Under the pieces are notes generated by a model. That model was not told where the DNA came from. It saw nothing but the letters and a program-made list of their open reading frames with translations, and made no database searches. From the sequence record OR757435: 64,000 bases of DNA; one strand, 5' to 3'. Source of the stretch: Escherichia phage vB-EcoP-XT32. A program made the position numbers and the translations under genes. Positions 7,396 through 48,016 of the stretch are shown here, piece by piece; position 1 is the first letter of the stretch; every line of letters starts with the position of its first letter.

Positions 7396-7405
7396 TAATG
7401 TATAT
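7396..7405 (+). promoter_or_regulatory. TAATGTATAT motif (candidate phage-sigma-dependent promoter element)
   Basis: Exact 10-mer, one of three exact plus-strand copies in the window, all intergenic; 32 nt upstream of ATG at 7438, just after a terminator. Confidence 0.45.
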
Positions 7406-33523: not shown

Positions 33524-33534
33524 AGTATACATTA
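33524..33534 (-). promoter_or_regulatory. TAATGTATACT motif, minus orientation, about 58 nt upstream of SSB gene
   Basis: Plus strand reads AGTATACATTA; reverse complement matches TAATGTATA core. Confidence 0.35.
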
Positions 33535-34448: not shown

Positions 34449-34931
34449 TTAGGTAGTTAATTTATGATCTTCCTCCGCTCTGTTTCTAACAGAGACGGCT
34501 TCCTCTAGGGTTGAGAAAGTTCCTAGGTATTTAGTTTTACCTCTAATATGTATGTTGGCTATGTACTTCCCTCTTGAATTGAGGTATACGCCCTTAGCTC
34601 CTGATGTGTTGTTAGAGTTCAAACCCTTGTTCCAAGAATTATTCTCGTTGTTAACTTCTCTAAGGTTGCCTATGGAATCGTTGGAAGGGTTTCGATCAAT
34701 GTGATCTATTTGATCTTTAGGTAAAACACCATTAGCAAAATACCAAATGATGTGGTATCTGTAAATGGCTCTTCCTTTCAATCGAATAAGCACTCTTCCA
34801 TCCTTTTTTGAAGTTCCTGCCTCGTCACCCCGCCTGCATTTTGTTCCGTTGTGAATTCTCCAGAACACTTTCCCAGATGATAAATCACAAACAAAGAACT
34901 CATCCAGAAGATCTTCTATCATATCATGCAA
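34449..34931 (-). CDS. HNH homing endonuclease with AP2-type DNA-binding domain
   Basis: 160 aa; HNH core DQIDHIDRNPSNDSIGNLR then AP2-like GVYLNSRGKYIANIHIRGKTKYLGTFSTLEEA. Confidence 0.75.
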   Translation of the reverse strand: MHDMIEDLLDEFFVCDLSSGKVFWRIHNGTKCRRGDEAGTSKKDGRVLIRLKGRAIYRYHIIWYFANGVLPKDQIDHIDRNPSNDSIGNLREVNNENNSWNKGLNSNNTSGAKGVYLNSRGKYIANIHIRGKTKYLGTFSTLEEAVSVRNRAEEDHKLTT

Positions 34932-36326: not shown

Positions 36327-38171
36327 TTAGTGAGTTTGCATCCAATTCAATCCGATTTTACAATCAGAAGCTAGTTCACAGTGCATGTTTAGATATTCAC
36401 CTGCCTTCTTAACACAAGTCTCAGCTATCTTCTTCATTTTATCAACGTCGTTACGGTTGACAGACCACTGTGCTTCATCATGATAATCGATCACTTTGTT
36501 TCCTCTAATATTCTGCTGCTCTACCCATTTGTTTGTAAACAGAATAGAGTACTTCATGACAATGGCACCTGCACTCTGAAGTAGAGTATTCAGTGCTTTA
36601 TGCACCATAACCTTACCAGTAGCATCTCGTCTCATAGTTAACTTACGACCATCCACACCTTCCAAAGTGCCTGATTCCGCTCGGGCCTGAACTCTCTCCA
36701 GTACGATAGGAATACAAGGACATTCCGCTAAGAATCGCTCTCTAAGAATTTCACCTTCTTGAGCACCCCCTCCAACTATTTCCCCAATTTTAGCTGCTCC
36801 TGCTCCATACAGGAATCCATAGATGAAGGTTTTTGCATTGTCACGAGTTGGAAGCCCAGCGAGTTTCTGATTGTGGGAATGAATATCACCAGACAGCAGT
36901 ACATCTCTGTATGTATAGGCAGCTTCTAAGCCTTTCTCAGCTCTTAGATATTTAACTTTGTCATTTTCTAGTTTAGCCTCCTCCATCATATCAAGGCACT
37001 CTTTTACTAGATAATGTACCAGCATACGCAACTCTAACCCAGAACCATCATACCCTAAGAATACTTCTTTACCAGCGGGTATGTAATATTTGTAAGCACC
37101 TACAGGCTTATCTTTCTTCCCCGGCTTACCTTTCTCGTAAATTACGTTAGTACCTTTTCGTATATAACAACCATCAGGAACAACGTTAGTAATAACGAAA
37201 GGACGAGAGTGATCATCATCTGAGTTATAGTCAGACTCAAACAAACTGCGACACTCATGACCAAACAAACCACGGGAGGGAATATTAACCACGATACGAT
37301 GTTTGAATCGAAAAGTCGGCGTAGCGCAGCTGTTAGCTTCTGCCGAAAGTTTACCATCTTCGCGTTCCTTTGCTATTAGTCCACTGATAAGACCTAGCCT
37401 GTGAGCCGCTACAACGCGTCTCTTAAGCAAACTTCCGACACTTCCTAACTCACCCCCTAACCCTTCTTCAAGAGTCTCCTCGAGGTTTGTAGGAGCTGTA
37501 GGCCACTTGTTTGAGGTAGCTAGTGCTATCTTAATCTCGTCAAAAGTGATAGGTCTACGTCGGTTAGGATTTAAACCTAAACCAAATACATAAGCCTTCA
37601 TATAGTTCTTAGTCTTAAACCTAAAATGCTTTTCTAAGAACTTCCTAATATCAGCGTCAACCATCTCGGCTGTCTGCTTCTGTTTAGCATTACCTCGCAT
37701 CCAAGCTGAATACCATGCTTGGTATGTTCCATACTTTCGCATATCTTTCTTGATTTCAAAAGTATTCCAAGGTTTCTTTGATACGTTAAACTCTGGAGGA
37801 AGAAAACCCTCATCCATAAGGGCTTCTTTAACTCGTGCATCTTTCGATGGGTCAAAGTCTACGTATTCAACACAGGTGAATGCTCCACCAATGTCTTCTC
37901 TCTTAAGTCCAACTCTATCACAATAGGCTTGAGGCCATTTCTGTAAAGCTCCAGACTTCTTAAATGGTTTCATGTAAGTAGAGCCATCTAATCGCATCTT
38001 AGGTAAGAGAGGAATCAGTTCTTTGTCAATATTAACAATAATCTCTTTAAGGAGGTGAACATACCACCGAGCATTTCTTCGGTTGAAACTCACTCCGTGC
38101 TTCGCTTGCTTAGAGATTATATCAGCGACAGTCATCTCTGTCAAAAATGGGAGAGCGTCCGGGTTGCTCAC
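36327..38171 (-). CDS. DNA polymerase, family A, polymerase domain only
   Basis: 614 aa; motif A GYDGSGLELRMLVH, motif B RDNAKTFIYGFLYGAG, motif C YHDEAQ; no 3'-5' exonuclease motifs in this ORF. Confidence 0.85.
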   Translation of the reverse strand: MSNPDALPFLTEMTVADIISKQAKHGVSFNRRNARWYVHLLKEIIVNIDKELIPLLPKMRLDGSTYMKPFKKSGALQKWPQAYCDRVGLKREDIGGAFTCVEYVDFDPSKDARVKEALMDEGFLPPEFNVSKKPWNTFEIKKDMRKYGTYQAWYSAWMRGNAKQKQTAEMVDADIRKFLEKHFRFKTKNYMKAYVFGLGLNPNRRRPITFDEIKIALATSNKWPTAPTNLEETLEEGLGGELGSVGSLLKRRVVAAHRLGLISGLIAKEREDGKLSAEANSCATPTFRFKHRIVVNIPSRGLFGHECRSLFESDYNSDDDHSRPFVITNVVPDGCYIRKGTNVIYEKGKPGKKDKPVGAYKYYIPAGKEVFLGYDGSGLELRMLVHYLVKECLDMMEEAKLENDKVKYLRAEKGLEAAYTYRDVLLSGDIHSHNQKLAGLPTRDNAKTFIYGFLYGAGAAKIGEIVGGGAQEGEILRERFLAECPCIPIVLERVQARAESGTLEGVDGRKLTMRRDATGKVMVHKALNTLLQSAGAIVMKYSILFTNKWVEQQNIRGNKVIDYHDEAQWSVNRNDVDKMKKIAETCVKKAGEYLNMHCELASDCKIGLNWMQTH

Positions 38172-38187
38172 TTTATACTCCTTTAAA

Positions 38188-38604
38188 TTATTGGTAAAGT
38201 AAATCTGTAAATGCTTGGTTATCTTCTACCACATCTAACATGGTAGCTTCGTCACTATAAGCCCTAACCATCCCATTGATAACTGTACGAGGAGGAGGTG
38301 GTGCATGGTTAGCCCCAGCTTCACGAGGTTGCTCTCGTACTAAATGGGCCACAACCCTTTGGTTAGCGACTTCTTCTCTTTCTCGAATAGCTCTCTGGAT
38401 ATAAGCTAACTTCATACCCCAAACTTCTTCAAACTCTTGAGGGTGCTTATCACTGATAACTACATACTGACGATCAGGGATACCAGAGCGAATCTCTGAC
38501 AACAGTTCATGGAACAAATCAAGTTCGTGTTCAGTGAGATTCATTTCGATATCATCCCACTTGAGAACTAGGAATCTGTTTTGATGTCTAGCTGGTAATG
38601 GCAT
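38188..38604 (-). CDS. hypothetical protein
   Basis: 138-aa ORF following the polymerase gene. Confidence 0.45.
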   Translation of the reverse strand: MPLPARHQNRFLVLKWDDIEMNLTEHELDLFHELLSEIRSGIPDRQYVVISDKHPQEFEEVWGMKLAYIQRAIREREEVANQRVVAHLVREQPREAGANHAPPPPRTVINGMVRAYSDEATMLDVVEDNQAFTDLLYQ

Positions 38605-38605
38605 T

Positions 38606-38764
38606 CTACTCCACCTCTACTTCAATGTAAGTTCTCTCACCAACGTCATCTTTTAAGACCCACGCCTTAGCATCTTCTTCAGACTTAAAAGCTTTCACAA
38701 CGCTGTATCCACCTTCCCATTCATCACCGACCCAGCGCTTTCCTACGTAAATGTATTCTTTCAT
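38606..38764 (-). CDS. hypothetical small protein
   Basis: 52-aa ORF (MKEYIYVGKRWVGDEWEGG...) filling the gap between annotated ORFs. Confidence 0.35.
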   Translation of the reverse strand: MKEYIYVGKRWVGDEWEGGYSVVKAFKSEEDAKAWVLKDDVGERTYIEVEVE

Positions 38765-38767
38765 CAC

Positions 38768-39043
38768 TCAACCTTTTGGGAATGGCGTTAAAGATTCCAT
38801 AGCAGATTTAATTTCGCTATTGATTCGAGCATCTCGATAAGAGATAAACTTACCTTTGCTGTCACGTAACATCACATGGGTTCTGGCTGTTTTGTGAGGG
38901 AGCAATGTGATACTGGTTGGGATAGTGTCAACCCCTGCAAGATATGTGTCAATAGTCTTGCTTTCAGTCAACAGATAAGACCAAGTTTTCTCCGGATGGT
39001 TAGGGTATATGTCTCGAATCTGAACCATAGCTAATTTATTCAT
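38768..39043 (-). CDS. hypothetical protein, paralog A of tandem pair
   Basis: C-terminus ...TARTHVMLRDSKGKFISYRDARINSEIKSAMESLTPFPKG resembles the adjacent gene. Confidence 0.5.
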   Translation of the reverse strand: MNKLAMVQIRDIYPNHPEKTWSYLLTESKTIDTYLAGVDTIPTSITLLPHKTARTHVMLRDSKGKFISYRDARINSEIKSAMESLTPFPKG

Positions 39044-39044
39044 A

Positions 39045-39293
39045 TTAAACTCCTTTAGGGAATGGGATGAGGTTTTCTACTGCAACACGGAATTCTTTCT
39101 CTACATCTTTATTCTTATAAGAAATGAACTTCCCATCAGCACCACGGAGGATTACGTTAGTACGAGCTGTTTTTGGGTTATGACCAATCTGGTTTGCAAT
39201 GAGATTAGCAATGCCATGATTGTTGGTGAATTTCCACTTAACCAGACGGACAGTCATTACATCAATAATAGTTACAGTTTTTACAATAGACAT
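39045..39293 (-). CDS. hypothetical protein, paralog B of tandem pair
   Basis: C-terminus ...TARTNVILRGADGKFISYKNKDVEKEFRVAVENLIPFPKGV. Confidence 0.5.
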   Translation of the reverse strand: MSIVKTVTIIDVMTVRLVKWKFTNNHGIANLIANQIGHNPKTARTNVILRGADGKFISYKNKDVEKEFRVAVENLIPFPKGV

Positions 39294-39361
39294 AGTTATT
39301 ACCTAAGAAGTTTAATTCGGTTTATATAAAAGAAAAGGCCACCCATTTGGGTAGCCTCATA

Positions 39362-39685
39362 TTACGAGGAGCTTAAAGCTCCTTTTCGCTTAGCAGCGCC
39401 AGCTGCCTTCCCAGCTCGATCTCCACTTTTGCCGCCAGCTGAACGATTTCCGCTGACTGTTTCAACACGTAAGTTGCTTGACGCATTAGAGCCTCCTGAC
39501 TTGATGGCTCGCTTGTGTCCAACGTCTTTACCTCTGACAGCAGCTTTTCCATCGCGCTTTTCAACGATGCGACGTGCACGGTGGCGCTGAGCATCTCCGC
39601 TCTTGCTACCAATTCCCGTTTCACCCCTTGCGATGGCGGTACGTCTTTCTTGTGCATAATCTCTCTTTCCTACATGGTCTGCCAT
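39362..39685 (-). CDS. highly basic Gly/Arg/Lys-rich protein (putative nucleic-acid binding)
   Basis: 107 aa, about 30 percent K/R, G-rich; an alternative overlapping frame (39373-39657) cannot be excluded. Confidence 0.35.
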   Translation of the reverse strand: MADHVGKRDYAQERRTAIARGETGIGSKSGDAQRHRARRIVEKRDGKAAVRGKDVGHKRAIKSGGSNASSNLRVETVSGNRSAGGKSGDRAGKAAGAAKRKGALSSS

Positions 39686-39741
39686 TTAAAACTCCTTAAT
39701 ATATCAGTGTACACTAAGGAGTATACATTATAAGTTACTGT

Positions 39742-40479
39742 TTAAGCTTTCTTTTCCATTGCTTTAACAATAGCTTTACAGAAACCAGAACGAACAATGT
39801 CATCTGATTCGCCGTCTACAATCTCAGCGAACTCATACAGATCATGTTCATCAATAAAGTTAGTAGCCCAAGTAAGACCACTCTCACGACCACGCATATC
39901 ATGCTGGTTTGTATCACCCATGCAGAACAGCTGAGAGGTTTCTCCCAATCGAGTCATGATTGAGAAGGCTTCATCTTTAGTGGTGTTCTGGAACTCATCA
40001 ACGATAACGATAGCATCATTGAAAGAACGACCACGGAGATACTCCAGAGGTACAAACTCAATGTTACTATTACCGAGCTGGCATTCATAGAACCCCTTAC
40101 CATATCTCTGAGTAATAACATCAATGATTGGCATCAGATATGGTTCAAATTTCTCACGCATTCCTCCCGGAAGCAACCCAAGTGAGTTACCCATGCCAAC
40201 AGAAGGGCGACTCAGAATGATCTTCTGAATCTTACCACTCTTCAGTGCATCAATAACTGTGGAAGTGATTACAAAGGTCTTCCCGCAGCCCGCAGGAGCG
40301 TCTGTGAACACAACTTGTTTAGTCTTGATAGCATTGAGCAGTTCAGACTGGAACTGGTTCTGAGGGACTACAGGCTTTGCTAAAACCACCTCTTCAAACT
40401 CGCGCTTACCCTTACGAGTGACAAGTGCTTCCCGACGAAGGTCTTTCCGTGATTCTTTCCGTGATTGACGACGACTCAT
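39742..40479 (-). CDS. phoH: PhoH-like ATPase
   Basis: 245 aa; Walker A DAPAGCGKTF, Walker B IVIVDEFQN. Confidence 0.85.
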   Translation of the reverse strand: MSRRQSRKESRKDLRREALVTRKGKREFEEVVLAKPVVPQNQFQSELLNAIKTKQVVFTDAPAGCGKTFVITSTVIDALKSGKIQKIILSRPSVGMGNSLGLLPGGMREKFEPYLMPIIDVITQRYGKGFYECQLGNSNIEFVPLEYLRGRSFNDAIVIVDEFQNTTKDEAFSIMTRLGETSQLFCMGDTNQHDMRGRESGLTWATNFIDEHDLYEFAEIVDGESDDIVRSGFCKAIVKAMEKKA

Positions 40480-40688
40480 TTACGCTCTCCAATTTCTTCG
40501 TAATGACATTCAGTAGTTAAACAATCTTTACAGATTGCTGTATAAACCCTGACGTTAGTAAATCGTTTGTTCTTCCCTTTGGTTGGAGAGCCTTTGGCAA
40601 GCTCTCTGATAACCTTGTTACTTAAATGAAGGTTTGTCCCTTCACATCTAGAGCACTTCACCACAATGTCCATTCGGTAAGAGACCAC
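40476..40688 (-). CDS. zinc-ribbon protein
   Basis: 70 aa with CSRCEG ... CKDCLTTEC. Confidence 0.45.
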   Translation of the reverse strand: MVSYRMDIVVKCSRCEGTNLHLSNKVIRELAKGSPTKGKNKRFTNVRVYTAICKDCLTTECHYEEIGERK

Positions 40689-40858
40689 AGAGAGTCACCT
40701 ATGTGGGCATTGTCATTCCTGATGAGGTCTTTGATTTTATCAACATTAGTTAAGTGAGTCACATTCAAAATATCCTCAACATCTGGGGCATATTTAAATA
40801 TGGCAACAATACTGTTGTGATCTTCAGCATATCTTTCTAGAACATAAACTACGCTCAT
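40658..40858 (-). CDS. hypothetical protein
   Basis: 66-aa ORF. Confidence 0.35.
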   Translation of the reverse strand: MSVVYVLERYAEDHNSIVAIFKYAPDVEDILNVTHLTNVDKIKDLIRNDNAHIGDSLWSLTEWTLW

Positions 40859-41178
40859 GCGAAGTTAACCTCTTTATGAAGTCTGTAAACAGCTGTCGCC
40901 ATACAAGCAACAGCTTCGTTATGTGGGAGATGCATCCCTGTAGAACCATCCCAATCTTTGAACTCATTGTCAAAGACTCCGGTAGGCTCTGGATACAAGG
41001 CTTGCAACTCAACCAAATCGTTAGCAACTTGTTGCCATTTATCATCAGACCAGATAGGGTCATCCAACCAGTAATACAAATAGGAATGGATGATCAATTG
41101 CCTTCTGTGCCGATTAATCACTTCAGCGGGACTTATTTCACTTCCATTTGAAGTCCTAAATGTATTACCGTCAATCAT
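40855..41178 (-). CDS. small protein resembling NAD-dependent DNA ligase domain Ia
   Basis: HSYLYYWLDDPIWSDDKWQQVANDLVELQALYPE parallels the LigA N-terminal pattern H.YLY..D.P.I.D..YD.L..EL..LE..HPE. Confidence 0.4.
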   Translation of the reverse strand: MIDGNTFRTSNGSEISPAEVINRHRRQLIIHSYLYYWLDDPIWSDDKWQQVANDLVELQALYPEPTGVFDNEFKDWDGSTGMHLPHNEAVACMATAVYRLHKEVNFA

Positions 41179-41381
41179 TATGAAAATTTCCGTTCTGTTA
41201 AAAAGTACTGAACTTCATTATCCGGAGACCAAACCTTTTCTCCATTTACCAGCTTCTTAGCATCTTCATATGAAGCACAATCCAAAGCAGGGTTCTCGGG
41301 TGTTGGTTTCCCTAGGAAATATTTCCAAGTCCAACGCTCTCCGTCATCATCTTGACAGTCAAGAGTCCATAATGTTTTCAT
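41178..41381 (-). CDS. hypothetical protein
   Basis: 67-aa ORF. Confidence 0.4.
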   Translation of the reverse strand: MKTLWTLDCQDDDGERWTWKYFLGKPTPENPALDCASYEDAKKLVNGEKVWSPDNEVQYFLTERKFS

Positions 41382-41596
41382 TTAACAACCTTAAATTTGA
41401 ATGTTGTTGGGTGATAATAATGCAACCTGTTAATGGTGTGCTTTGTTTCAAGATATATCCTACAAGAGTGACACATAACATGAGACAGACCAGTTACAGG
41501 ATTAGGTTTGAAGTTGATGATAGTCTTCTCTTTCTTACAGAAGCTACACACTTTATGTGTCATTAACTCTCCAAAGTTTTCTTCAGAGCTGCCCAC
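41378..41596 (-). CDS. zinc-finger-like small protein
   Basis: 72 aa with CSFCKK ... CHSCR. Confidence 0.4.
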   Translation of the reverse strand: MGSSEENFGELMTHKVCSFCKKEKTIINFKPNPVTGLSHVMCHSCRIYLETKHTINRLHYYHPTTFKFKVVK

Positions 41597-42210
41597 GAGA
41601 TTGGGTAGAGTTTAGCCATCTCTTCATCCAGAGATTGAGCAAACACTCGAACTTCATACTGAGCATGGGAGGATAGTCGCTGACGACACAACTCAAACCA
41701 GCCATACAAAGAACCAGTCCAGTACCAAGTAGTTACCATACCTTGAGGTAAAACAAATCTAGCCTGTTCAGGAGCTACGAACTTAATTAATTCATCATAA
41801 CTAGCAAGAGATGCCTCATATGCAGAGTTAAACAAAGCTAAAGCCTTTACCTCTTCATCTCCTTCAAGGAGTGTTCCAGAACCCGAATGTAGATCATCGG
41901 GGCGAGAGAAGATTTCTTTAGGTATAAAAATATCCACTGCTCCATCTTTATATCTACGACTCATCTCATTCCAAGAAAAACCAACTTGATGCTTCTGTAG
42001 CTGACGTGCAATTGCTATAGGGGCTTCGCATCTGAAGCTAGCTTGTGGGTGGCGAAAAGGGCTTACGTGTCGCTCTCGAGCTAGGAAGTTAATAAGCCGA
42101 GTATCACTTTCTTTCAACTCCTCTCTTTCTACCCCCATAGTCACACGAGCAGCATTGACCACAGTAAGGTCGGAACCGAAGTTATCAATTAGTGAAGCTT
42201 TGATTGTCAT
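41563..42210 (-). CDS. thyX: flavin-dependent thymidylate synthase ThyX
   Basis: 215 aa; RHVSPFRHPQASF and ...SWNEMSRRY match the ThyX signature. Confidence 0.8.
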   Translation of the reverse strand: MTIKASLIDNFGSDLTVVNAARVTMGVEREELKESDTRLINFLARERHVSPFRHPQASFRCEAPIAIARQLQKHQVGFSWNEMSRRYKDGAVDIFIPKEIFSRPDDLHSGSGTLLEGDEEVKALALFNSAYEASLASYDELIKFVAPEQARFVLPQGMVTTWYWTGSLYGWFELCRQRLSSHAQYEVRVFAQSLDEEMAKLYPISWAALKKTLES

Positions 42211-42676
42211 TTATATAAGTCTCCTTGACTTTATTATATGCTTTAGAGGCTTCTTCTATAGTTGAGAAGAGTCCTATGTGCTTAGATTTGAATACCGCCC
42301 GGTAAGCAATAGAGCCACTTTTCCTTCTATGAAGAGTTACTCCAATCACTCCGGTTGATAAGTTGTTACTTTGGGCTATTTTGTTGAGTCCATTCCCTGA
42401 CCTAGTAGTCCCTCTAAGGTTCTCTCTTTTGTTATTTAGTCTGTTGCGGTCTACATGGTCCACTTCTTCAGGAAGCAATCCAGTGTCCCACCAGTAAGCA
42501 AGTCGATGAGCATAATACCTAACACCTTTATAAACGATTCTCAAATACCCGTTGGTATTTATAGAACCAGCTATAGACCCTTTGCGCCCTTTTCCATAAG
42601 TTTTAACCCATCGGAAATCTCCAGTCAAAGGGTCATAATCAAGAGCTTCTTTTATTGATGGATCAATATCATTCAT
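42185..42676 (-). CDS. HNH homing endonuclease with AP2-type domain
   Basis: 163 aa; HNH core EEVDHVDRNRLNNKRENLR then AP2-like GVTLHRRKSGSIAYRAVFKSKHIGLFSTIEEA. Confidence 0.75.
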   Translation of the reverse strand: MNDIDPSIKEALDYDPLTGDFRWVKTYGKGRKGSIAGSINTNGYLRIVYKGVRYYAHRLAYWWDTGLLPEEVDHVDRNRLNNKRENLRGTTRSGNGLNKIAQSNNLSTGVIGVTLHRRKSGSIAYRAVFKSKHIGLFSTIEEASKAYNKVKETYINDNQSFTN

Positions 42677-42691
42677 CCGTGAATTTCCTTA

Positions 42692-42901
42692 TTAATATTC
42701 TTTTACATAACAAACCACTAAGGTTCCCTTCTCTGACAATGTTGATTTATGTAAGCTTACTTTACTATAAATCTTTGGAGACATCTTAAGAGCCTTCTTA
42801 AAACGGCGAGCATCTTTACGAGTAGCAAAGTGCTCTGTAACAGGTATAGCCGGGTCTTGGTAGAGGTAATATACCACCGTCCAATATTTTTTCATAATCA
42901 A
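42692..42901 (-). CDS. small protein, member of a 4-copy paralogous family
   Basis: MIMKKYWTVVYY ... FATRKDARRFKK ... shares MKK.W.V ... F.TR..AR..K pattern with 44857-45371 ORFs. Confidence 0.5.
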   Translation of the reverse strand: MIMKKYWTVVYYLYQDPAIPVTEHFATRKDARRFKKALKMSPKIYSKVSLHKSTLSEKGTLVVCYVKEY

Positions 42902-43170
42902 ACACCTAGGGCAGTAGTTAAGAATGCTTTCAGGTTTGCTTCGGTCTGCATACCAGAGAGACTATAGTGTGCACCACTATTACGGTCAGGTACAACGAAA
43001 GCAGGGATGCTTCTTACACCATACTTAACAGCTTGTTCACGACCATCACCTTCAAGGATGTTAATCTCTTCTACTTCTACATCGAACTCCTTAACAACCT
43101 TCTCAAAGGTAGGAGCCATTGCTTTACATGGAGCACACTGATCGCTATAAAACTTAATCACTTTAGACAT
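42898..43170 (-). CDS. thioredoxin
   Basis: Start at ATG 43170 (AAGGAA upstream); MSKVIKFYSDQCAPCK active-site C..C. Confidence 0.7.
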   Translation of the reverse strand: MSKVIKFYSDQCAPCKAMAPTFEKVVKEFDVEVEEINILEGDGREQAVKYGVRSIPAFVVPDRNSGAHYSLSGMQTEANLKAFLTTALGV

Positions 43171-43171
43171 T

Positions 43172-43348
43172 CTATTCCTTGTTAATAAACAGGTTGATAT
43201 GACGTTGGGTAGCAGGAACAACAATAAAAGATTTATACTGACCTTTTGCTAAGTCATGAGCAATCTTCTTTGTTTGACCAAGACCCATCACACAGCCACT
43301 AACGATAATGGCATGTGCTTGTAATTCTTCAGGTAGGTTTAGTTTCAC
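43172..43348 (-). CDS. hypothetical small protein upstream of thioredoxin
   Basis: 58-aa GTG-initiated ORF (VKLNLPEELQAHAIIVSGCVMGLGQ...) with AAAGAG upstream. Confidence 0.3.
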   Translation of the reverse strand: MKLNLPEELQAHAIIVSGCVMGLGQTKKIAHDLAKGQYKSFIVVPATQRHINLFINKE

Positions 43349-43360
43349 TCTTTGGTTTCC

Positions 43361-43546
43361 TTATAGCATACAAAGAATAATAACAAGAGGTAGTGTTATA
43401 GCAAAATGTACCAGAACAACACTGCCTAGCTTGATAGCTTTAACATCCTCTTCTGCTGGGTTTTCTTTAATTGCTAAATTTCGAGCTTTATATATAACAG
43501 TACCAACTATTAACGACCACACGGCCCACACAATCAGTGAAATCAT
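43361..43546 (-). CDS. small 2-TM membrane protein (paralog 1)
   Basis: 61 aa; two hydrophobic helices (MISLIVWAVWSLIVGTVIY and VLVHFAITLPLVIILCML). Confidence 0.5.
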   Translation of the reverse strand: MISLIVWAVWSLIVGTVIYKARNLAIKENPAEEDVKAIKLGSVVLVHFAITLPLVIILCML

Positions 43547-43555
43547 ATCAAACCC

Positions 43556-43735
43556 TTATGCAGTCAGGAGGTGAAGCAGGAATGGGATAACAACAGCTAC
43601 GACAACCATGATGGTTGATGCTGTTTGAATCTCACCTTTCTTGTCAGGAGTTTCTTCAATAAGCTTGCCAGAAGCCCAATAGATACCACCACCAATAAAG
43701 ACAGCCCAAATACCCCATACGATTGCTGATAACAT
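43556..43735 (-). CDS. small 2-TM membrane protein (paralog 2)
   Basis: 59-aa ORF (MLSAIVWGIWAVFIGGGIYWASGK...VVVAVVIPFLLHLLTA) with AAGGA upstream; N-terminus resembles 43361-43546 product; preferred over overlapping track ORF 43597-43851. Confidence 0.45.
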   Translation of the reverse strand: MLSAIVWGIWAVFIGGGIYWASGKLIEETPDKKGEIQTASTIMVVVAVVIPFLLHLLTA

Positions 43736-43796
43736 ATATCTATATCCTTATAAATAAGTTCGCCCCACCTCGGGTTAGGAGACAGGGCGGAGGTTT

Positions 43797-44360
43797 TTAG
43801 TAAGACACATCGCCACTTGAGTGGGACATGTTGCTCTTGACGAAGTAGCAATACTTGCCAAGACCTTCATTAATTTCTTGAAGCATACTCTGATCAACTG
43901 GATAAGTGGCTAAATCACCATCAAACTCATCCATCTTCTCAATAATACACATCAAGGTCATGCACATATCAGAGAGCATACCGTCCATATCTAGGTCAGC
44001 ATTACCCTCTGAGAACCAAGCATGGGAGAGATAATTGGCTGCTGTGGCGTCCACTTTAACACAGTGGTAACGCATACGTTCAGCAATACGATCTCCTACT
44101 TGTCGTGCGTAATCTTCCAGCTCATCAAACATACCATGAACACCCTGAAATCCTGCACCAGAGACGTTCCAATGGTAGTTTTTAGCTTTGATATGCAAGA
44201 GTTCTATGTTAGCTTGTAAGCAGCTCAGGATGTGTTCTAGGCTGTTTCCACTAATCATACCCTGCATTGTTTCAAGGCGAGAGATTGAAAGCTCTGATCG
44301 GTCTAACATATTATATTCGGCACGACCAATCTCAGGTAAATCAAAAACATTCTTATGCAT
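43797..44360 (-). CDS. Dps/ferritin-like protein
   Basis: 187 aa; LHIKAKNYHWNVSGAGFQGVHGMFDELEDYARQVGDRIAERM matches Dps ferroxidase-site pattern (HWN ... H ... D ... E); ATG abuts the assembly gap. Confidence 0.65.
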   Translation of the reverse strand: MHKNVFDLPEIGRAEYNMLDRSELSISRLETMQGMISGNSLEHILSCLQANIELLHIKAKNYHWNVSGAGFQGVHGMFDELEDYARQVGDRIAERMRYHCVKVDATAANYLSHAWFSEGNADLDMDGMLSDMCMTLMCIIEKMDEFDGDLATYPVDQSMLQEINEGLGKYCYFVKSNMSHSSGDVSY

Positions 44361-44856
44361 TNNNNNNNNNNNNNNNNNNNNNNNNNNNNNNNNNNNNNNN
44401 NNNNNNNNNNNNNNNNNNNNNNNNNNNNNNNNNNNNNNNNNNNNNNNNNNNNNNNNNNNNNNNNNNNNNNNNNNNNNNNNNNNNNNNNNNNNNNNNNNNN
44501 NNNNNNNNNNNNNNNNNNNNNNNNNNNNNNNNNNNNNNNNNNNNNNNNNNNNNNNNNNNNNNNNNNNNNNNNNNNNNNNNNNNNNNNNNNNNNNNNNNNN
44601 NNNNNNNNNNNNNNNNNNNNNNNNNNNNNNNNNNNNNNNNNNNNNNNNNNNNNNNNNNNNNNNNNNNNNNNNNNNNNNNNNNNNNNNNNNNNNNNNNNNN
44701 NNNNNNNNNNNNNNNNNNNNNNNNNNNNNNNNNNNNNNNNNNNNNNNNNNNNNNNNNNNNNNNNNNNNNNNNNNNNNNNNNNNNNNNNNNNNNNNNNNNN
44801 NNNNNNNNNNNNNNNNNNNNNNNNNNNNNNNNNNNNNNNNNNNNNNNNNNNNNNNN
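44361..44856. other. assembly gap (496 N)
   Basis: Run of N characters; sequence unknown. Confidence 0.99.
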
Positions 44857-44965
44857 GTTTCTTAGCAATACGAGCCTCTTTGCGAGTGTCAAACAATTTG
44901 ATGCTATCTTTTCTCGTGTGTTGATCAAGATCCCAAACAACACGAATCGCCCACATCTTTTTCAT
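44857..44965 (-). CDS. small protein of the paralogous family, 5' portion only (3' end lost in gap)
   Basis: MKKMWAIRVVWDLDQHTRKDSIKLFDTRKEARIAKK then runs into N. Confidence 0.4.
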
Positions 44966-45174
44966 TAGTAATGTACCTTTCCGCTGATATAAACACGACC
45001 AGAAGAATACTCCTTGGCCTTATGGATACTGATACTATTGACCACGTCACCAGTAAGCATAGTCTTTTTAAAATCTCGAGCCTGTTGACGAGTAGGAAGT
45101 GCAGTCATAGTCATACCACCTGATGCCCACTTAATCTTTGCTAACCAAAACTGTCTCATAGTGATTGGTCTCAT
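44965..45174 (-). CDS. small protein, paralogous family member
   Basis: 69 aa; ...LPTRQQARDFKKTML ... shares family pattern. Confidence 0.45.
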   Translation of the reverse strand: MRPITMRQFWLAKIKWASGGMTMTALPTRQQARDFKKTMLTGDVVNSISIHKAKEYSSGRVYISGKVHY

Positions 45175-45371
45175 TAATAATAAACCTTGCTGTTGGCAAA
45201 AAGAGCACCTTCGTTATTCACAATAGCTTTTCCTATTGTAACCTTATTGAGTCTAAAAGTAGACTTGTATTGGTTTTTGACCCTACGGGCGTGTTCTCGA
45301 GTGTTAATAAAATCTACAGCTACCAAGTCTCCAGTCGTATCATCATGTACACGAACAATCCACTTTTTCAT
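45174..45371 (-). CDS. small protein, paralogous family member
   Basis: 65 aa; MKKWIVRVHDD ... FINTREHARRVK ... Confidence 0.5.
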   Translation of the reverse strand: MKKWIVRVHDDTTGDLVAVDFINTREHARRVKNQYKSTFRLNKVTIGKAIVNNEGALFANSKVYY

Positions 45372-45574
45372 TTTACTAAACCCTTCATATAGTTATAAAG
45401 ATCGTTAGAGGCTTTACCCCATTCAAGGTGCTTCTTATCCATATAGCTCTTACAAGCTTCTTTACTGCTTTCGACGCATATATCAAATTGATGACATGCT
45501 CGACCAAATGTCATAGCTTTTAATTGAACCTCGGTAGTCAAACCTTTCAGTTCTTGGAACTCTTCTTCAGTCAT
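45368..45574 (-). CDS. hypothetical protein
   Basis: 68-aa ORF translationally coupled to neighbours. Confidence 0.4.
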   Translation of the reverse strand: MTEEEFQELKGLTTEVQLKAMTFGRACHQFDICVESSKEACKSYMDKKHLEWGKASNDLYNYMKGLVK

Positions 45575-46108
45575 TTACACACCTTTAGATGCAACTACAC
45601 CTTCAGAGTTATTATAACGCCCCTTCACTGCATAGGAATGTTCCCCTGCATGAGAGTGCTCAAACATCACCATCTGACCAACACGCATACCAGCACGAAC
45701 TCGTAAACTGTGGTGCTTGGTTACGTTATGGAATTCAAATGTCAGCTTACTGCTATTAAATCCTGCATCTGCCCAACCGGCGTGAAGGTGGTTCAAACCA
45801 CAACGAGCCATAGACGAACGCAGAACAAACAGACTTGAGATGTTATCTGGAAGATTAAACTCCTCCATGGAGTGAGCCAAGAAGAACTGACCCGGAGTGA
45901 TAACCAAACCCTCTTCAGGAATTTTTACTTCCTTCCACTGAAGATTTTCTTTCGCATCAATATCAACGATGCCATCAGCCTGTTCTTCAACAAGGATAGT
46001 ATCACCAATACGGATATCCACACTAGCAGCGTTAACATACTTATGCTCCGCATCCAGATAGCCATTATCAATTACATCGTGTAGTTCAACACTTCCTAGT
46101 AAACTCAT
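45575..46108 (-). CDS. dCTP deaminase (dUTPase superfamily)
   Basis: 177 aa; SVDIRIGDT, ITPGQFFLAHSMEEFNLP, LRSSMARCGLNHLHAGWADAGF, RAGMRVGQMVMF parallel E. coli Dcd. Confidence 0.7.
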   Translation of the reverse strand: MSLLGSVELHDVIDNGYLDAEHKYVNAASVDIRIGDTILVEEQADGIVDIDAKENLQWKEVKIPEEGLVITPGQFFLAHSMEEFNLPDNISSLFVLRSSMARCGLNHLHAGWADAGFNSSKLTFEFHNVTKHHSLRVRAGMRVGQMVMFEHSHAGEHSYAVKGRYNNSEGVVASKGV

Positions 46109-46117
46109 TTTTATTCC

Positions 46118-47194
46118 TTAGTTATTTGTTTCCATGTCAAAAGAAAATCCACGACCCGCTTCATCGGCAAACCGAACTGTACGGGTTTGAGGCTCTAATA
46201 CTTCAGGGTTGTTAGCAACAAACCGATCAGCGAGACTTTGGTTGACAGTTTCAGCGAGTTCCCCATGAGAGGGAATATTAAGATCGGCGAGATTATCAAC
46301 CACATCTTGGGCCACGTCTTCATCAGTCCATACAGCCCTAACAGGTGCGTTGAAACTCTGACCAGAGAACTGGTGACGGCTAACAGTCAAACCATTTGAT
46401 TGACCATTAGAACGTCTAGACAACCACTGCTCAAATGAATCGCCAGTAACACCAAGAGCTTCTTCAAAAGATGTTCTACGAGTAGAGCTTAGATTTCGTG
46501 CTTCGTTTGCTCGACGTCTTGCAGGGGCTACAAACACCCCTTCAACTGCATTGTGCCGATTAGGTTCATCTTCTCGACCAAGGAGATCTCCTCCTGTATT
46601 AGTTGTTAAGTTTGTCAACCCTTCAGACCAATATGCACGAATCTGGCTAGAGCCGTGAATGATTGACATTAACTGAATCTCTTCATAAGGGATTCCAAAG
46701 AATATACTCATGTCTCGGTTAACACAATATTGAGCACTTGTTGTATCCTCAATAAGAGAAACCTGACCTAATCCACTAACCAGATGACTAACTGGCTGAG
46801 GTGTAGGAAGGTATCGAGTTTGGGCCATATATTGATATGCAACAGATGGAGCTGAGAATCTTAACACTTGTGAATTAGGCCACTTTTTGTGAACGTATCT
46901 GATTTCACGACTAGAAACAACCACCGGGCAAGGAGCGGTCATAGCCAAATATCCATGAGGAGTCATGAATAGGTTTTCAAGGGTCATCGCACCACGACAC
47001 ATCATAGGAAAATTATCCAATACCTCTTCGATAGAAGTGGGATAATTAAACATGAATTGGATTCGAGTTCCCTGCCACTGAAATTCAATGATATCAGTGA
47101 ATGTTAATTGGGAAGTTCCTGTATATGGTTCATCTGTAGTTTCAGCAAGAAGAGATGAATACTCAATATCTTGTGACTCTAGCCACTCTTTCAC
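46118..47194 (-). CDS. hypothetical protein; possibly the body of a frameshifted tRNA nucleotidyltransferase
   Basis: GTG-initiated 358-aa ORF overlapping the stop of the NTase-head ORF; its upstream frame encodes ...IEYSSLLAETTDEPYTGTS resembling CCA-enzyme EYALARTER...GYTGFT. Confidence 0.45.
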   Translation of the reverse strand: MKEWLESQDIEYSSLLAETTDEPYTGTSQLTFTDIIEFQWQGTRIQFMFNYPTSIEEVLDNFPMMCRGAMTLENLFMTPHGYLAMTAPCPVVVSSREIRYVHKKWPNSQVLRFSAPSVAYQYMAQTRYLPTPQPVSHLVSGLGQVSLIEDTTSAQYCVNRDMSIFFGIPYEEIQLMSIIHGSSQIRAYWSEGLTNLTTNTGGDLLGREDEPNRHNAVEGVFVAPARRRANEARNLSSTRRTSFEEALGVTGDSFEQWLSRRSNGQSNGLTVSRHQFSGQSFNAPVRAVWTDEDVAQDVVDNLADLNIPSHGELAETVNQSLADRFVANNPEVLEPQTRTVRFADEAGRGFSFDMETNN

Positions 47195-47460
47195 ATTGCT
47201 TTCAATCTCACGCCCAAGAGCTTGCCACTGAAAGTGTTTTGAGTTCTTGGTGTCTGTCCTCTGACAATAAAGATATCGATGTCATGAGGTGCTATGTTAT
47301 TAAGAACAGCGTCACGAACAGCCCCACCAGTAATGATGGGACAGATACCATCTGGAATCAAGTTGTTGTTAATCAGCTGTTCAATGAAGTGACGACCGAC
47401 AGTGATATCAGGTTGTTGAGCAACCTTATCTTCAATTCGGTTAATCGGGATAACAATCAT
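47191..47460 (-). CDS. nucleotidyltransferase head domain (CCA-adding enzyme/poly(A) polymerase-like)
   Basis: ITGGAVRDAVLNNIAPHDIDIFIV matches GGxVRD ... DxD head-domain signature; start taken at ATG 47460. Confidence 0.55.
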   Translation of the reverse strand: MIVIPINRIEDKVAQQPDITVGRHFIEQLINNNLIPDGICPIITGGAVRDAVLNNIAPHDIDIFIVRGQTPRTQNTFSGKLLGVRLKAM

Positions 47461-47461
47461 T

Positions 47462-48016
47462 TTACATTTTCCAATATAATGAAGGTGGGTCGTAAGGGTC
47501 AAATCCTGTGAGTTCACACAAGTATTTATAAACCTTAACGGTTAAGTTAACGTCCTGTTCACAGTAAGTAAACATATCTTCAGTGAAAGCATCCCATGCT
47601 TCCTCTTGCTCACCGTAGTCTCCTTTAAGTTCCTCTAAGAACTCACCCCATTGCTTCAAACCATGACCTCTTGGGCCATGTCTAGGGTCACCTTTCGGAT
47701 ACTCAGGACTGTCACCAATACGGTCAGGTTTAAGATATCGACTAAGACACAAGGTGTCGAAGACGTTAAAACGATAGTCGATCAGATTGGGATACATCTT
47801 CTTCAGAGCACAAAGGTCGAAGTCAATAATATTATGACCTACGAGCACATCAGCTTCTGTAAGTTTACGAACCCCATCTTCAATTTGGTGAGGCCGATAG
47901 CCCCACCTTTCACCAGTTTCAACATCGAAGATGTAAATACACCATACTTTAGTTATGTCATCGTATAGTGCATTACTCTCGATATCAAAAGCAAACACTT
48001 TCTTTTTCTTTACCAC
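47462..48016 (-). CDS. 3'-5' exonuclease (DnaQ-like proofreading domain), separate gene
   Basis: 184 aa; Exo [10 protein letters not shown], Exo [12 protein letters not shown], Exo [12 protein letters not shown]. Confidence 0.8.

Follow-up and report, generated by a model that had tools for sequence, protein, structure and literature searches.

The DNA analysed here is a stretch of 64,000 nucleotides (the window) from Escherichia phage vB-EcoP-XT32 (sequence record OR757435), a Kuravirus, that is, a phiEco32-like E. coli podophage of the Gordonclarkvirinae. It encodes a T7-type family A DNA polymerase and a 3′-5′ proofreading exonuclease on two separate genes, whereas T7 carries both domains in the single 704-amino-acid chain of gp5. 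All genes from approximately 28 kb to the end of the window lie on the minus strand. Among them, the exonuclease gene directly follows that of the primase-helicase, the gene for the polymerase comes several kilobases later on this strand, and the 5′-3′ exonuclease has a gene of its own, which is the Kuravirus layout already described (PMC9965538). A first reading made from the sequence only had placed the polymerase and the exonuclease approximately 9 kb apart; both open reading frames (ORFs) were found on the minus strand, with 9,290 bp between them. This interval contains genes for PhoH, ThyX, thioredoxin, a Dps-like protein, dCTP deaminase, a ligase Ia domain and a broken nucleotidyltransferase, together with many small ORFs. 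Of these, PhoH, ThyX, thioredoxin and Dps had been named by the sequence-only reading; Pfam confirmed all four, assigning Dps to the Dps/ferritin-like proteins, and revealed dCTP deaminase as well.

In tblastn searches of GenBank phages the 614-amino-acid polymerase was 99.8% identical to those of phages vB-EcoP-XT18 and XT73, and approximately 80 other Kuravirus phages matched it at 80–90% identity. The polymerase and the exonuclease are respectively 87% and 95% identical to their phiEco32 counterparts, which the phiEco32 RefSeq record names gp53, 'DNA polymerase (lacks 5'-3' and 3'-5' exonuclease domains)', and gp74, 'DNA polymerase exonuclease subunit (contains 3'-5' exonuclease domain)'. 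The pair is annotated in XT18 as it is in phiEco32.

Polymerase and exonuclease correspond to complementary parts of T7 gp5

The polymerase matched Pfam DNA_pol_A (E=1e-20) over residues 364–611. Motif A (DGSGLELR) starts at residue 375, motif B (RDNAKTFIYGFLYGAG) at residue 443, and motif C (HDE) occupies residues 564–566. Motif B is identical to that of T7, including the tyrosine at the position of T7 Y526. Residues D375, R443, K447, Y451, H564, D565 and E566 were invariant in 47 polymerase homologues, and Y455 is also present and invariant. The closest solved relative is T7 gp5 (E=9e-37), with residues 63–613 aligning to gp5 295–703, and T7 gp5 chains were the best Foldseek matches (E ~3e-25) of an AlphaFold2 model with a mean predicted local distance difference test score (pLDDT) of 90.7. 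Its three motifs and its nearness to gp5 place the protein in the T7-like family A cluster (cd08643; cluster 5 of PMC10201439), but it lacks the 3′-5′ exonuclease domain that canonical members have on the same chain. No exonuclease domain was matched in the Pfam search of the polymerase ORF (no PF01612), DNA_pol_A being its only match, and neither this search nor the alignment to gp5 revealed exonuclease motifs, as the sequence-only reading had noted.

Compared with T7 and with relatives in which both domains are fused, the polymerase contains three lineage-specific internal insertions, at residues ~135–220, 318–365 and 390–418, all modelled with good confidence. These insertions explain why a polymerase without an exonuclease domain is still 614 amino acids long. 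A shorter version of the first is found in PaP3-like phages and in locus L012, the second is common to PaP3-like phages and the IMG/VR contigs L007 and L009, and the third is confined to L007, L009 and Kuravirus. The extra length was also considered as a vestigial exonuclease domain. This was rejected, since the additional residues are internal and the N-terminus corresponds to the first helix of the polymerase domain.

The polymerase gene of the window is uninterrupted. In the Kuravirus phages Bas93, Bas94, LAMP, PE006 and VTCCBPA_211 it is interrupted by an insert of 0.3–0.7 kb, which, where annotated, carries an endonuclease VII or homing endonuclease gene. The polymerase gene of the LUZ24-like contig L048 is interrupted likewise. 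The interrupted genes encode N-terminal fragments of 440–460 amino acids, placing the break near residue 450, within motif B.

The 184-amino-acid exonuclease matched Pfam DNA_pol_A_exo1 (PF01612, E=1.2e-8) and the PHROG entry 'DNA polymerase exonuclease subunit'. Its sole sequence match in the PDB was T7 gp5 residues 3–182 (E=1.5e-10), aligned to exonuclease residues 9–163, and the top 27 Foldseek PDB matches of its AlphaFold2 model (mean pLDDT 94.2) were all T7 gp5 chains. The protein has a modelled RNase H-like fold, nearest to the gp5 exonuclease domain, and the Exo I (DxE, D11/E13), Exo II (NxxxxD, N62/D67) and Exo III (YxxxD, Y151/D155) motifs of a DEDDy exonuclease of the DnaQ-like superfamily; these six residues and H61 were invariant in 46 exonuclease homologues. 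All 51 homologues that were found are stand-alone proteins, of 105–257 amino acids. The sequence-only reading had described the product as DnaQ-like with Exo I–III motifs. The motifs are there; the protein, however, is a proofreading domain of the T7/Pol I type and not an epsilon-type DnaQ. Nor is it an unrelated nuclease, since gp5 is its best match in both sequence and fold.

To place both proteins on T7 gp5, we aligned them jointly with gp5 and six fused relatives. The last residue of the exonuclease fell at approximately gp5 position 205 and the polymerase began at approximately 206, so that the two proteins tile gp5 with no overlap and with nothing missing or duplicated. Pairwise alignments gave the same picture (exonuclease to gp5 5–196, polymerase to ~206–704), as did the PHROG profile phrog_17, on which the exonuclease covers positions 668–826 and the polymerase positions 836–1233. 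We therefore consider it probable, with good support from homology and conservation, that the replicase of this phage is a family A polymerase of the T7 gp5 type whose proofreading and polymerase domains are encoded by two genes, and that its two parts most likely reassemble non-covalently.

The exonuclease gene is tightly linked to that of the primase-helicase, the stop codon of which overlaps the exonuclease start codon (junction CACCGTGGTAAAG), and a GGAG sequence is located 8–11 nucleotides upstream of the exonuclease GTG start. The primase-helicase is 99.8% identical to phiEco32 phi32_75, 'DNA primase/helicase', and 28% identical to T7 gp4. The 272-amino-acid 5′-3′ exonuclease is 98.5% identical to phi32_33, 'exonuclease, similar to exonuclease domain of DNA polymerase I'; it matched Pfam 5_3_exonuc_N below the curated cutoff (E=6.5e-6) and T7 gp6 weakly (E=6.6e-5). 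The coordinates of these and other features are collected in Table 1.

Table 1. Features of the split replicase locus and its surroundings in the window
Feature	Position	Strand	Remarks
Family A (T7-type) DNA polymerase catalytic subunit, 614 amino acids	36327–38171	-	Corresponds to T7 gp5 ~206–704, without exonuclease domain
Stand-alone 3′-5′ proofreading exonuclease subunit, 184 amino acids	47462–48016	-	Corresponds to T7 gp5 ~1–205
T7 gp4-type DNA primase/helicase, 596 amino acids	48010–49800	-	Pfam DnaB_C E=1e-10, weak Toprim_2
Separate 5′-3′ exonuclease/flap endonuclease, 272 amino acids	29262–30080	-	Third Pol I-type activity; position of T7 gene 6
Basic mini-HNH-like protein, 107 amino acids (phrog_4590)	39362–39685	-	phrog_4590 E=2e-38
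gp36 sigma-factor promoter element TAATGTATA, exact	39722–39730	-	Between PhoH and mini-HNH genes
Large HNH_3 endonuclease gene, 163 amino acids, recent insertion	42185–42676	-	Pfam HNH_3 E=1.2e-10
Phage thioredoxin, 90 amino acids from XT18 ATG, active site CAPC	42898–43170	-	Pfam Thioredoxin E=2e-13
Run of 494 N	44363–44856		XT18 has a 495-bp 'HNH homing endonuclease' gene at the same position

A separation of this kind could be produced by an assembly error, or by a recent rearrangement or pseudogenisation in one genome, and the window does contain a masked stretch and a 13-nucleotide deletion that breaks the neighbouring nucleotidyltransferase gene. Both replicase ORFs are nevertheless intact, with invariant active sites. 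The same architecture is moreover present in phiEco32, XT18, NJ01, the contigs L007 and L009 and PaP3-like phages, which refutes this explanation and reduces its probability to almost nil.

Distribution and origin of the split

Relatives of the polymerase were examined in 80 IMG/VR loci, in which the exonuclease, polymerase, thioredoxin and primase-helicase genes were located by profile searches of stop-to-stop ORFs. Most relatives at 37% identity or less were fused. Among the split forms the gap between the two genes was zero (adjacent genes), 1.7–1.9, 5.4, 8.5 or 8.0–9.8 kb. A tree of 77 polymerase domains was built by neighbour-joining from 399 columns, with 100 bootstraps, and was rooted on T7. 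The Kuravirus and PaP3/LUZ24-like polymerases formed one clade, consisting of split forms only, with 100% bootstrap support. Within this clade the PaP3-like phages (1.7–1.9 kb) branched first, then L011 and L012, whose exonuclease and polymerase ORFs are adjacent and overlap, then L009 (5.4 kb), and finally L007 (8.5 kb) and Kuravirus (8.0–9.8 kb). The nearest fused forms, L015 and L016, were sister to the split clade with weak support (45%). S-SBP1 and L014/L024 are also split but were placed elsewhere in the tree, indicating that fission at the interdomain linker happened more than once.

The phages phiEco32 and PaP3-like share the genes upstream of the split, in which amidoligase, glutamine amidotransferase, gamma-glutamyl cyclotransferase, primase-helicase and exonuclease are syntenic. 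The tree argues that the Kuravirus and PaP3/LUZ24-like splits probably descend from one old event. Of the two origins offered by the sequence-only reading, a naturally split polymerase is borne out: the two products tile gp5, the catalytic residues are kept, and the split has been passed down through a deep clade whose polymerases are as little as 38% identical. The comparison with phiEco32, XT18, NJ01 and PaP3-like phages gave the same split throughout. The other origin, rearrangement, does not agree with the gene order. The order primase-helicase, exonuclease, polymerase, 5′-3′ exonuclease is also that of T7 (genes 4, 5 and 6), PaP3-like phages, a cyanophage and a Zobellviridae phage. It therefore appears that the polymerase gene was pulled apart in place and not rearranged.

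HNH genes and the interval

Homing endonuclease activity had been suggested as a further cause of the separation, on the grounds that two HNH genes lie between the polymerase and the exonuclease. One large HNH gene can be read in the interval, at 42185–42676, and a second probably lies under the run of N, where the corresponding gene of XT18, the closest relative, sits between a small ORF and the Dps gene; a third readable HNH gene, at 34449–34931, lies downstream of the polymerase and outside the interval. The 163-amino-acid HNH_3 gene is present in XT18 and absent from the phiEco32 annotation. As phiEco32 has the same split, with a gap of 8.0 kb and no HNH gene annotated within it, the large HNH genes are recent additions, and they were rejected as the cause of the split.

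A different gene could be connected with its origin. The 107-amino-acid mini-HNH gene is the only gene in the gap that is common to all lineages with a gap (Kuravirus, L007, L009 and PaP3-like phages), and an old insertion of an HNH gene at the domain boundary is therefore possible. XT18 annotates the gene as 'PhoH-like'. Its product is 59% identical to that of the PaP3-like ORF L004 14450–14758, for which RefSeq record NC_019813 calls another (wrong) frame, and which overlaps the 3′ end of the exonuclease gene. The family has the signature …VDHK…GGSN…SNL…N…, in which H57, N71 and N80 are invariant. At E<=1, 32 of 45 members matched Pfam HNH (PF01844, best 6e-4) and 20 of 45 matched HNH_3 (PF13392, best 2e-5), and two are named HNH endonuclease by UniRef. 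The window copy itself gave no Pfam HNH match, and has G in place of the D of the 'DH' motif; searching the PDB with a family profile yielded only ribosomal proteins at chance level and no HNH protein.

In this origin a mobile HNH endonuclease would have inserted at the domain boundary and made the split, the mini-HNH gene being its remnant. Besides its distribution, its HNH signature and its position in PaP3-like phages, where it directly follows the exonuclease gene and overlaps it, the recurrence of homing endonuclease inserts at motif B of these polymerase genes is in favour. On the other hand, L011 and L012 are nested in the split clade with adjacent ORFs, and no mini-HNH gene was found in the 15 kb of sequence seen. 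The independent splits in S-SBP1, L014 and L024 occurred without an inserted gene, that in S-SBP1 being attributed to a frameshift (PMC10201439). The higher identity between lineages of the mini-HNH protein (59%) than of the polymerase (38%) could equally mean later transfer. An origin by HNH insertion is thus possible but rather doubtful; the alternative is a fission of the frameshift type followed by later gene accretion.

A link between the mini-HNH gene and the localised nicks of LUZ24/tf-type phages was considered as well, and was dropped because the nick motif TACTRTGMC occurs in the window no more often than expected (2 sites, expectation 2.0).

Promoter elements

Kuravirus middle promoters were sought by the consensus of the gp36 sigma factor, tAATGTAtA (PMC8948821). 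The window contains five exact copies of TAATGTATA, at 7396, 23142 and 33598 on the plus strand and at 33526 and 39722 on the minus strand. The last of these precedes the polymerase gene by 1.55 kb and follows the exonuclease gene at a distance of 7.7 kb. In phiEco32 an exact element is found 1.56 kb upstream of the polymerase gene, and the locus has 4 copies against 0.34 expected. From this position the polymerase is predicted to be able to use a middle promoter that does not serve the exonuclease. The elements at 33526(-) and 33598(+) are 72 bp apart and face away from each other.

Only one perfect sigma-70 consensus occurs in the 64 kb of the window (TTGACA-17-TATAAT, upstream TG; expected number 0.03). 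It lies at 38116–38144 on the minus strand, inside the polymerase ORF at codons 10–19 and in the same direction. It is kept at the same position of the polymerase gene in phiEco32, XT18 and NJ01, and PaP3-like phages have a perfect sigma-70 consensus approximately 720 bp upstream of the polymerase gene, inside the gap. The element at 38116–38144 may act as an internal promoter or as one associated with an origin, or may simply result from the coding sequence.

Thioredoxin and the polymerase thumb loop

The sequence-only reading had proposed that the phage thioredoxin serves as a processivity factor, as in T7. The protein is 100% identical to XT18 thioredoxin and aligns to residues 24–105 of E. 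coli Trx1 (E=1.7e-7), lacking approximately 22 N-terminal residues of TrxA. Thus, whereas T7 uses the thioredoxin of its host, this phage encodes its own N-terminally truncated CAPC thioredoxin. The loop at the tip of the polymerase thumb, between helices 31–55 and 111–120, is confidently modelled and approximately 52–55 amino acids long, compared with approximately 75 in T7 (262–338). Its C-terminal part is homologous to the thioredoxin-binding loop of T7 (REDIGGAFTCVEYVDFDPS vs REYVAGAPYTPVEHVVFNPS), and approximately 25 T7-specific residues are missing. A loop of the same length is found in the PaP3-like, L012 and fused L015/L016 polymerases, and no thioredoxin gene was detected in the DNA examined around these; a thioredoxin gene in the gap is limited to Kuravirus, L007 and L009. 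Because the loop has the same length in relatives without a nearby thioredoxin gene, the analysis gives no specific support to thioredoxin as a processivity factor of this polymerase. The role is a published hypothesis, put forward in the Privateer paper, where phage thioredoxin and polymerase are suggested to couple in the manner of T7 (PMC7881722).

Other genes in the interval

The nucleotidyltransferase gene (46118–47517, minus strand), a homologue of phi32_73, has a 13-nucleotide deletion at approximately 47229 relative to XT18 and phiEco32. The deletion leaves two ORFs in different frames, 47191–47517, which contains the motif GGAVRD…DIDIF, and 46118–47194; in XT18 the homologue is intact and encodes 453 amino acids. 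The broken gene could be a real pseudogene or an assembly error. The product of 40855–41178 (minus strand), which relatives annotate as 'DNA ligase', is only 107 amino acids long and consists of the NAD+-binding Ia domain alone (Pfam Nlig-Ia, E=3e-35); no adenylation or OB domain was found in it by Pfam.

Several small genes of the interval, all on the minus strand, resemble one another. Those at 38768–39293 form a tandem pair whose products end in …PFPKG and are 56% identical over 41 amino acids, and a tandem pair of small membrane proteins is encoded at 43361–43735 (33% identity, E=2e-9). Four weakly related ORFs of 65–70 amino acids, at 42692–42901 and 44857–45371, share the pattern K-K-x-W…TR-x-x-AR-x-x-KK (pairwise E=7e-5 to 0.4). 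By these similarities, part of the gap is made up of duplicated small genes.

Discussion

The separation of exonuclease and polymerase genes is a real feature, already annotated and published, and is ordinary for this group of phages. The 2012 paper on Pseudomonas phage tf reported that the polymerase and the 3′-exonuclease are separate genes in all LUZ24-group phages (PMC3517423), and noted that a similar organisation had been reported for phiEco32. According to the YF01 paper of 2023, every Kuravirus-like phage has the separation, as do 7-11, Privateer, Vp_R1 and BUCT695 (PMC9965538). Czernecki et al. (2023) analysed a fission of exonuclease and polymerase in S-SBP1-like cyanophages, predicting that the products reassemble like the unsplit enzyme (PMC10201439), and clade B T7-like cyanophages are now routinely described with a split polymerase (PMC12695635). 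As the papers that cover the split and the thioredoxin idea date from 2012, 2021 and 2023, the window adds no new biology in this respect. The S-SBP1 case was called the first of its kind in PolAs (PMC10201439, 2023), but the phiEco32 and LUZ24 cases had been noted earlier (PMC3517423, 2012).

The orthologues of phiEco32 gp74 and gp53 in Kuravirus are the same genes in the same order as here. The window and XT18 differ from phiEco32 in having extra HNH genes and small ORFs, which account for the larger gap of 9.3 kb in the window, and the window differs further in its broken nucleotidyltransferase gene. The PaP3/LUZ24/tf-like Pseudomonas phages (Bruynoghevirus) share the all-split clade, the upstream synteny and the mini-HNH gene in the gap, whereas their gap is only 1.7–1.9 kb and their polymerases are 38% identical to that of the window; no thioredoxin, ThyX, PhoH or dCTP deaminase gene was found in the PaP3-like gap. 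S-SBP1-like cyanophages are cut at the same interdomain linker and have the same order of primase-helicase, exonuclease, polymerase and 5′-3′ exonuclease, but their ORFs are adjacent and overlap through a frameshift and the thumb loop is shortened by a deletion of 32 amino acids in the thioredoxin-binding region. With its gap of more than 9 kb and a thumb loop of approximately 52 amino acids, as in fused relatives, the window is not of this type, and S-SBP1, which lies outside the Kuravirus/PaP3 clade, represents an independent event.

A polymerase and its proofreading nuclease are also found on separate polypeptides in E. coli Pol III (alpha-epsilon, family C) and in archaeal PolD (DP1/DP2). 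These are unrelated polymerase families, whereas the two proteins of the window are recognisable halves of one family A enzyme. The analogy of a split polymerase with PolD has been drawn before (PMC10201439).

The following course of events would account for these observations. The ancestral gene would have been cut at the interdomain linker before the Kuravirus-like and PaP3/LUZ24-like lineages diverged. The interval would then have been filled by genes for nucleotidyltransferase, dCTP deaminase, Dps, thioredoxin, ThyX, ligase domain Ia and PhoH, and duplicated small ORFs and mobile HNH genes may also have accumulated there. The two proteins are expected to come together non-covalently as a gp5-like enzyme, in which the 184-amino-acid subunit would remove misincorporated 3′ nucleotides for the 614-amino-acid catalytic subunit. 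Physical association of the two subunits and proofreading in trans are what the homology to gp5 leads us to infer.

Alternatively, the exonuclease could be an independent nuclease that no longer partners the polymerase, which would then work without built-in proofreading. Roles in recombination, in primer or end processing or in host DNA breakdown can be suggested for such a nuclease, or it might simply travel with the primase-helicase. All split relatives examined have their exonuclease gene coupled to that of the primase-helicase, not to that of the polymerase, and a middle-class promoter element lies between exonuclease and polymerase. However, both by sequence and by fold the exonuclease is nearest to the proofreading domain of gp5, and every split form is cut at the same interdomain linker. 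Wherever a locus covered the exonuclease region, a single exonuclease accompanied a single polymerase devoid of that domain. For S-SBP1, whose split is analogous, a complex of exonuclease and polymerase has been predicted that can be superposed on the unsplit enzyme, and the same paper holds that family A polymerases depend on the exonuclease domain for structural stability (PMC10201439). An independent nuclease is therefore improbable, and we favour reassembly of the two subunits.

Several points weigh against this account. Biochemical studies of an exonuclease subunit that acts in trans with a family A polymerase of phages were sought in the literature, and none came to light. The distance of 9.3 kb between the genes, with an exact gp36-type promoter element between them, means that exonuclease and polymerase may not be made in equal amounts. 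The three lineage-specific insertions of the polymerase may affect the docking of the exonuclease. Finally, the evolutionary argument uses a tree made by neighbour-joining only, in which the sister position of the fused L015/L016 has 45% support.

A more far-reaching proposal is that the split has made a modular, multi-subunit family A replicase in which exonuclease and polymerase are dosed separately, further parts serve docking and processivity, and the mini-HNH gene was the original splitter. If so, the exonuclease would be made with the primase-helicase and the polymerase from its own gp36-dependent middle promoter, so that proofreading and synthesis would be dosed separately and fidelity would be tunable; the polymerase insertions and the truncated thioredoxin would be docking and processivity parts. 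We regard this combination as speculative and unlikely to hold in full.

The modest new points of the present analysis are that the Kuravirus and PaP3/LUZ24-like splits can be traced, with the reservations given above, to one event with a gap that grew stepwise, that a conserved mini-HNH gene is located in the gap, and that the thumb loop shows no link to a phage-encoded thioredoxin. As the split demonstrates, a family A replicase can have its proofreading domain on a chain of its own, and this state is long-lasting in evolution. The arrangement has a bearing on enzyme engineering and on the ways in which phages might control fidelity.

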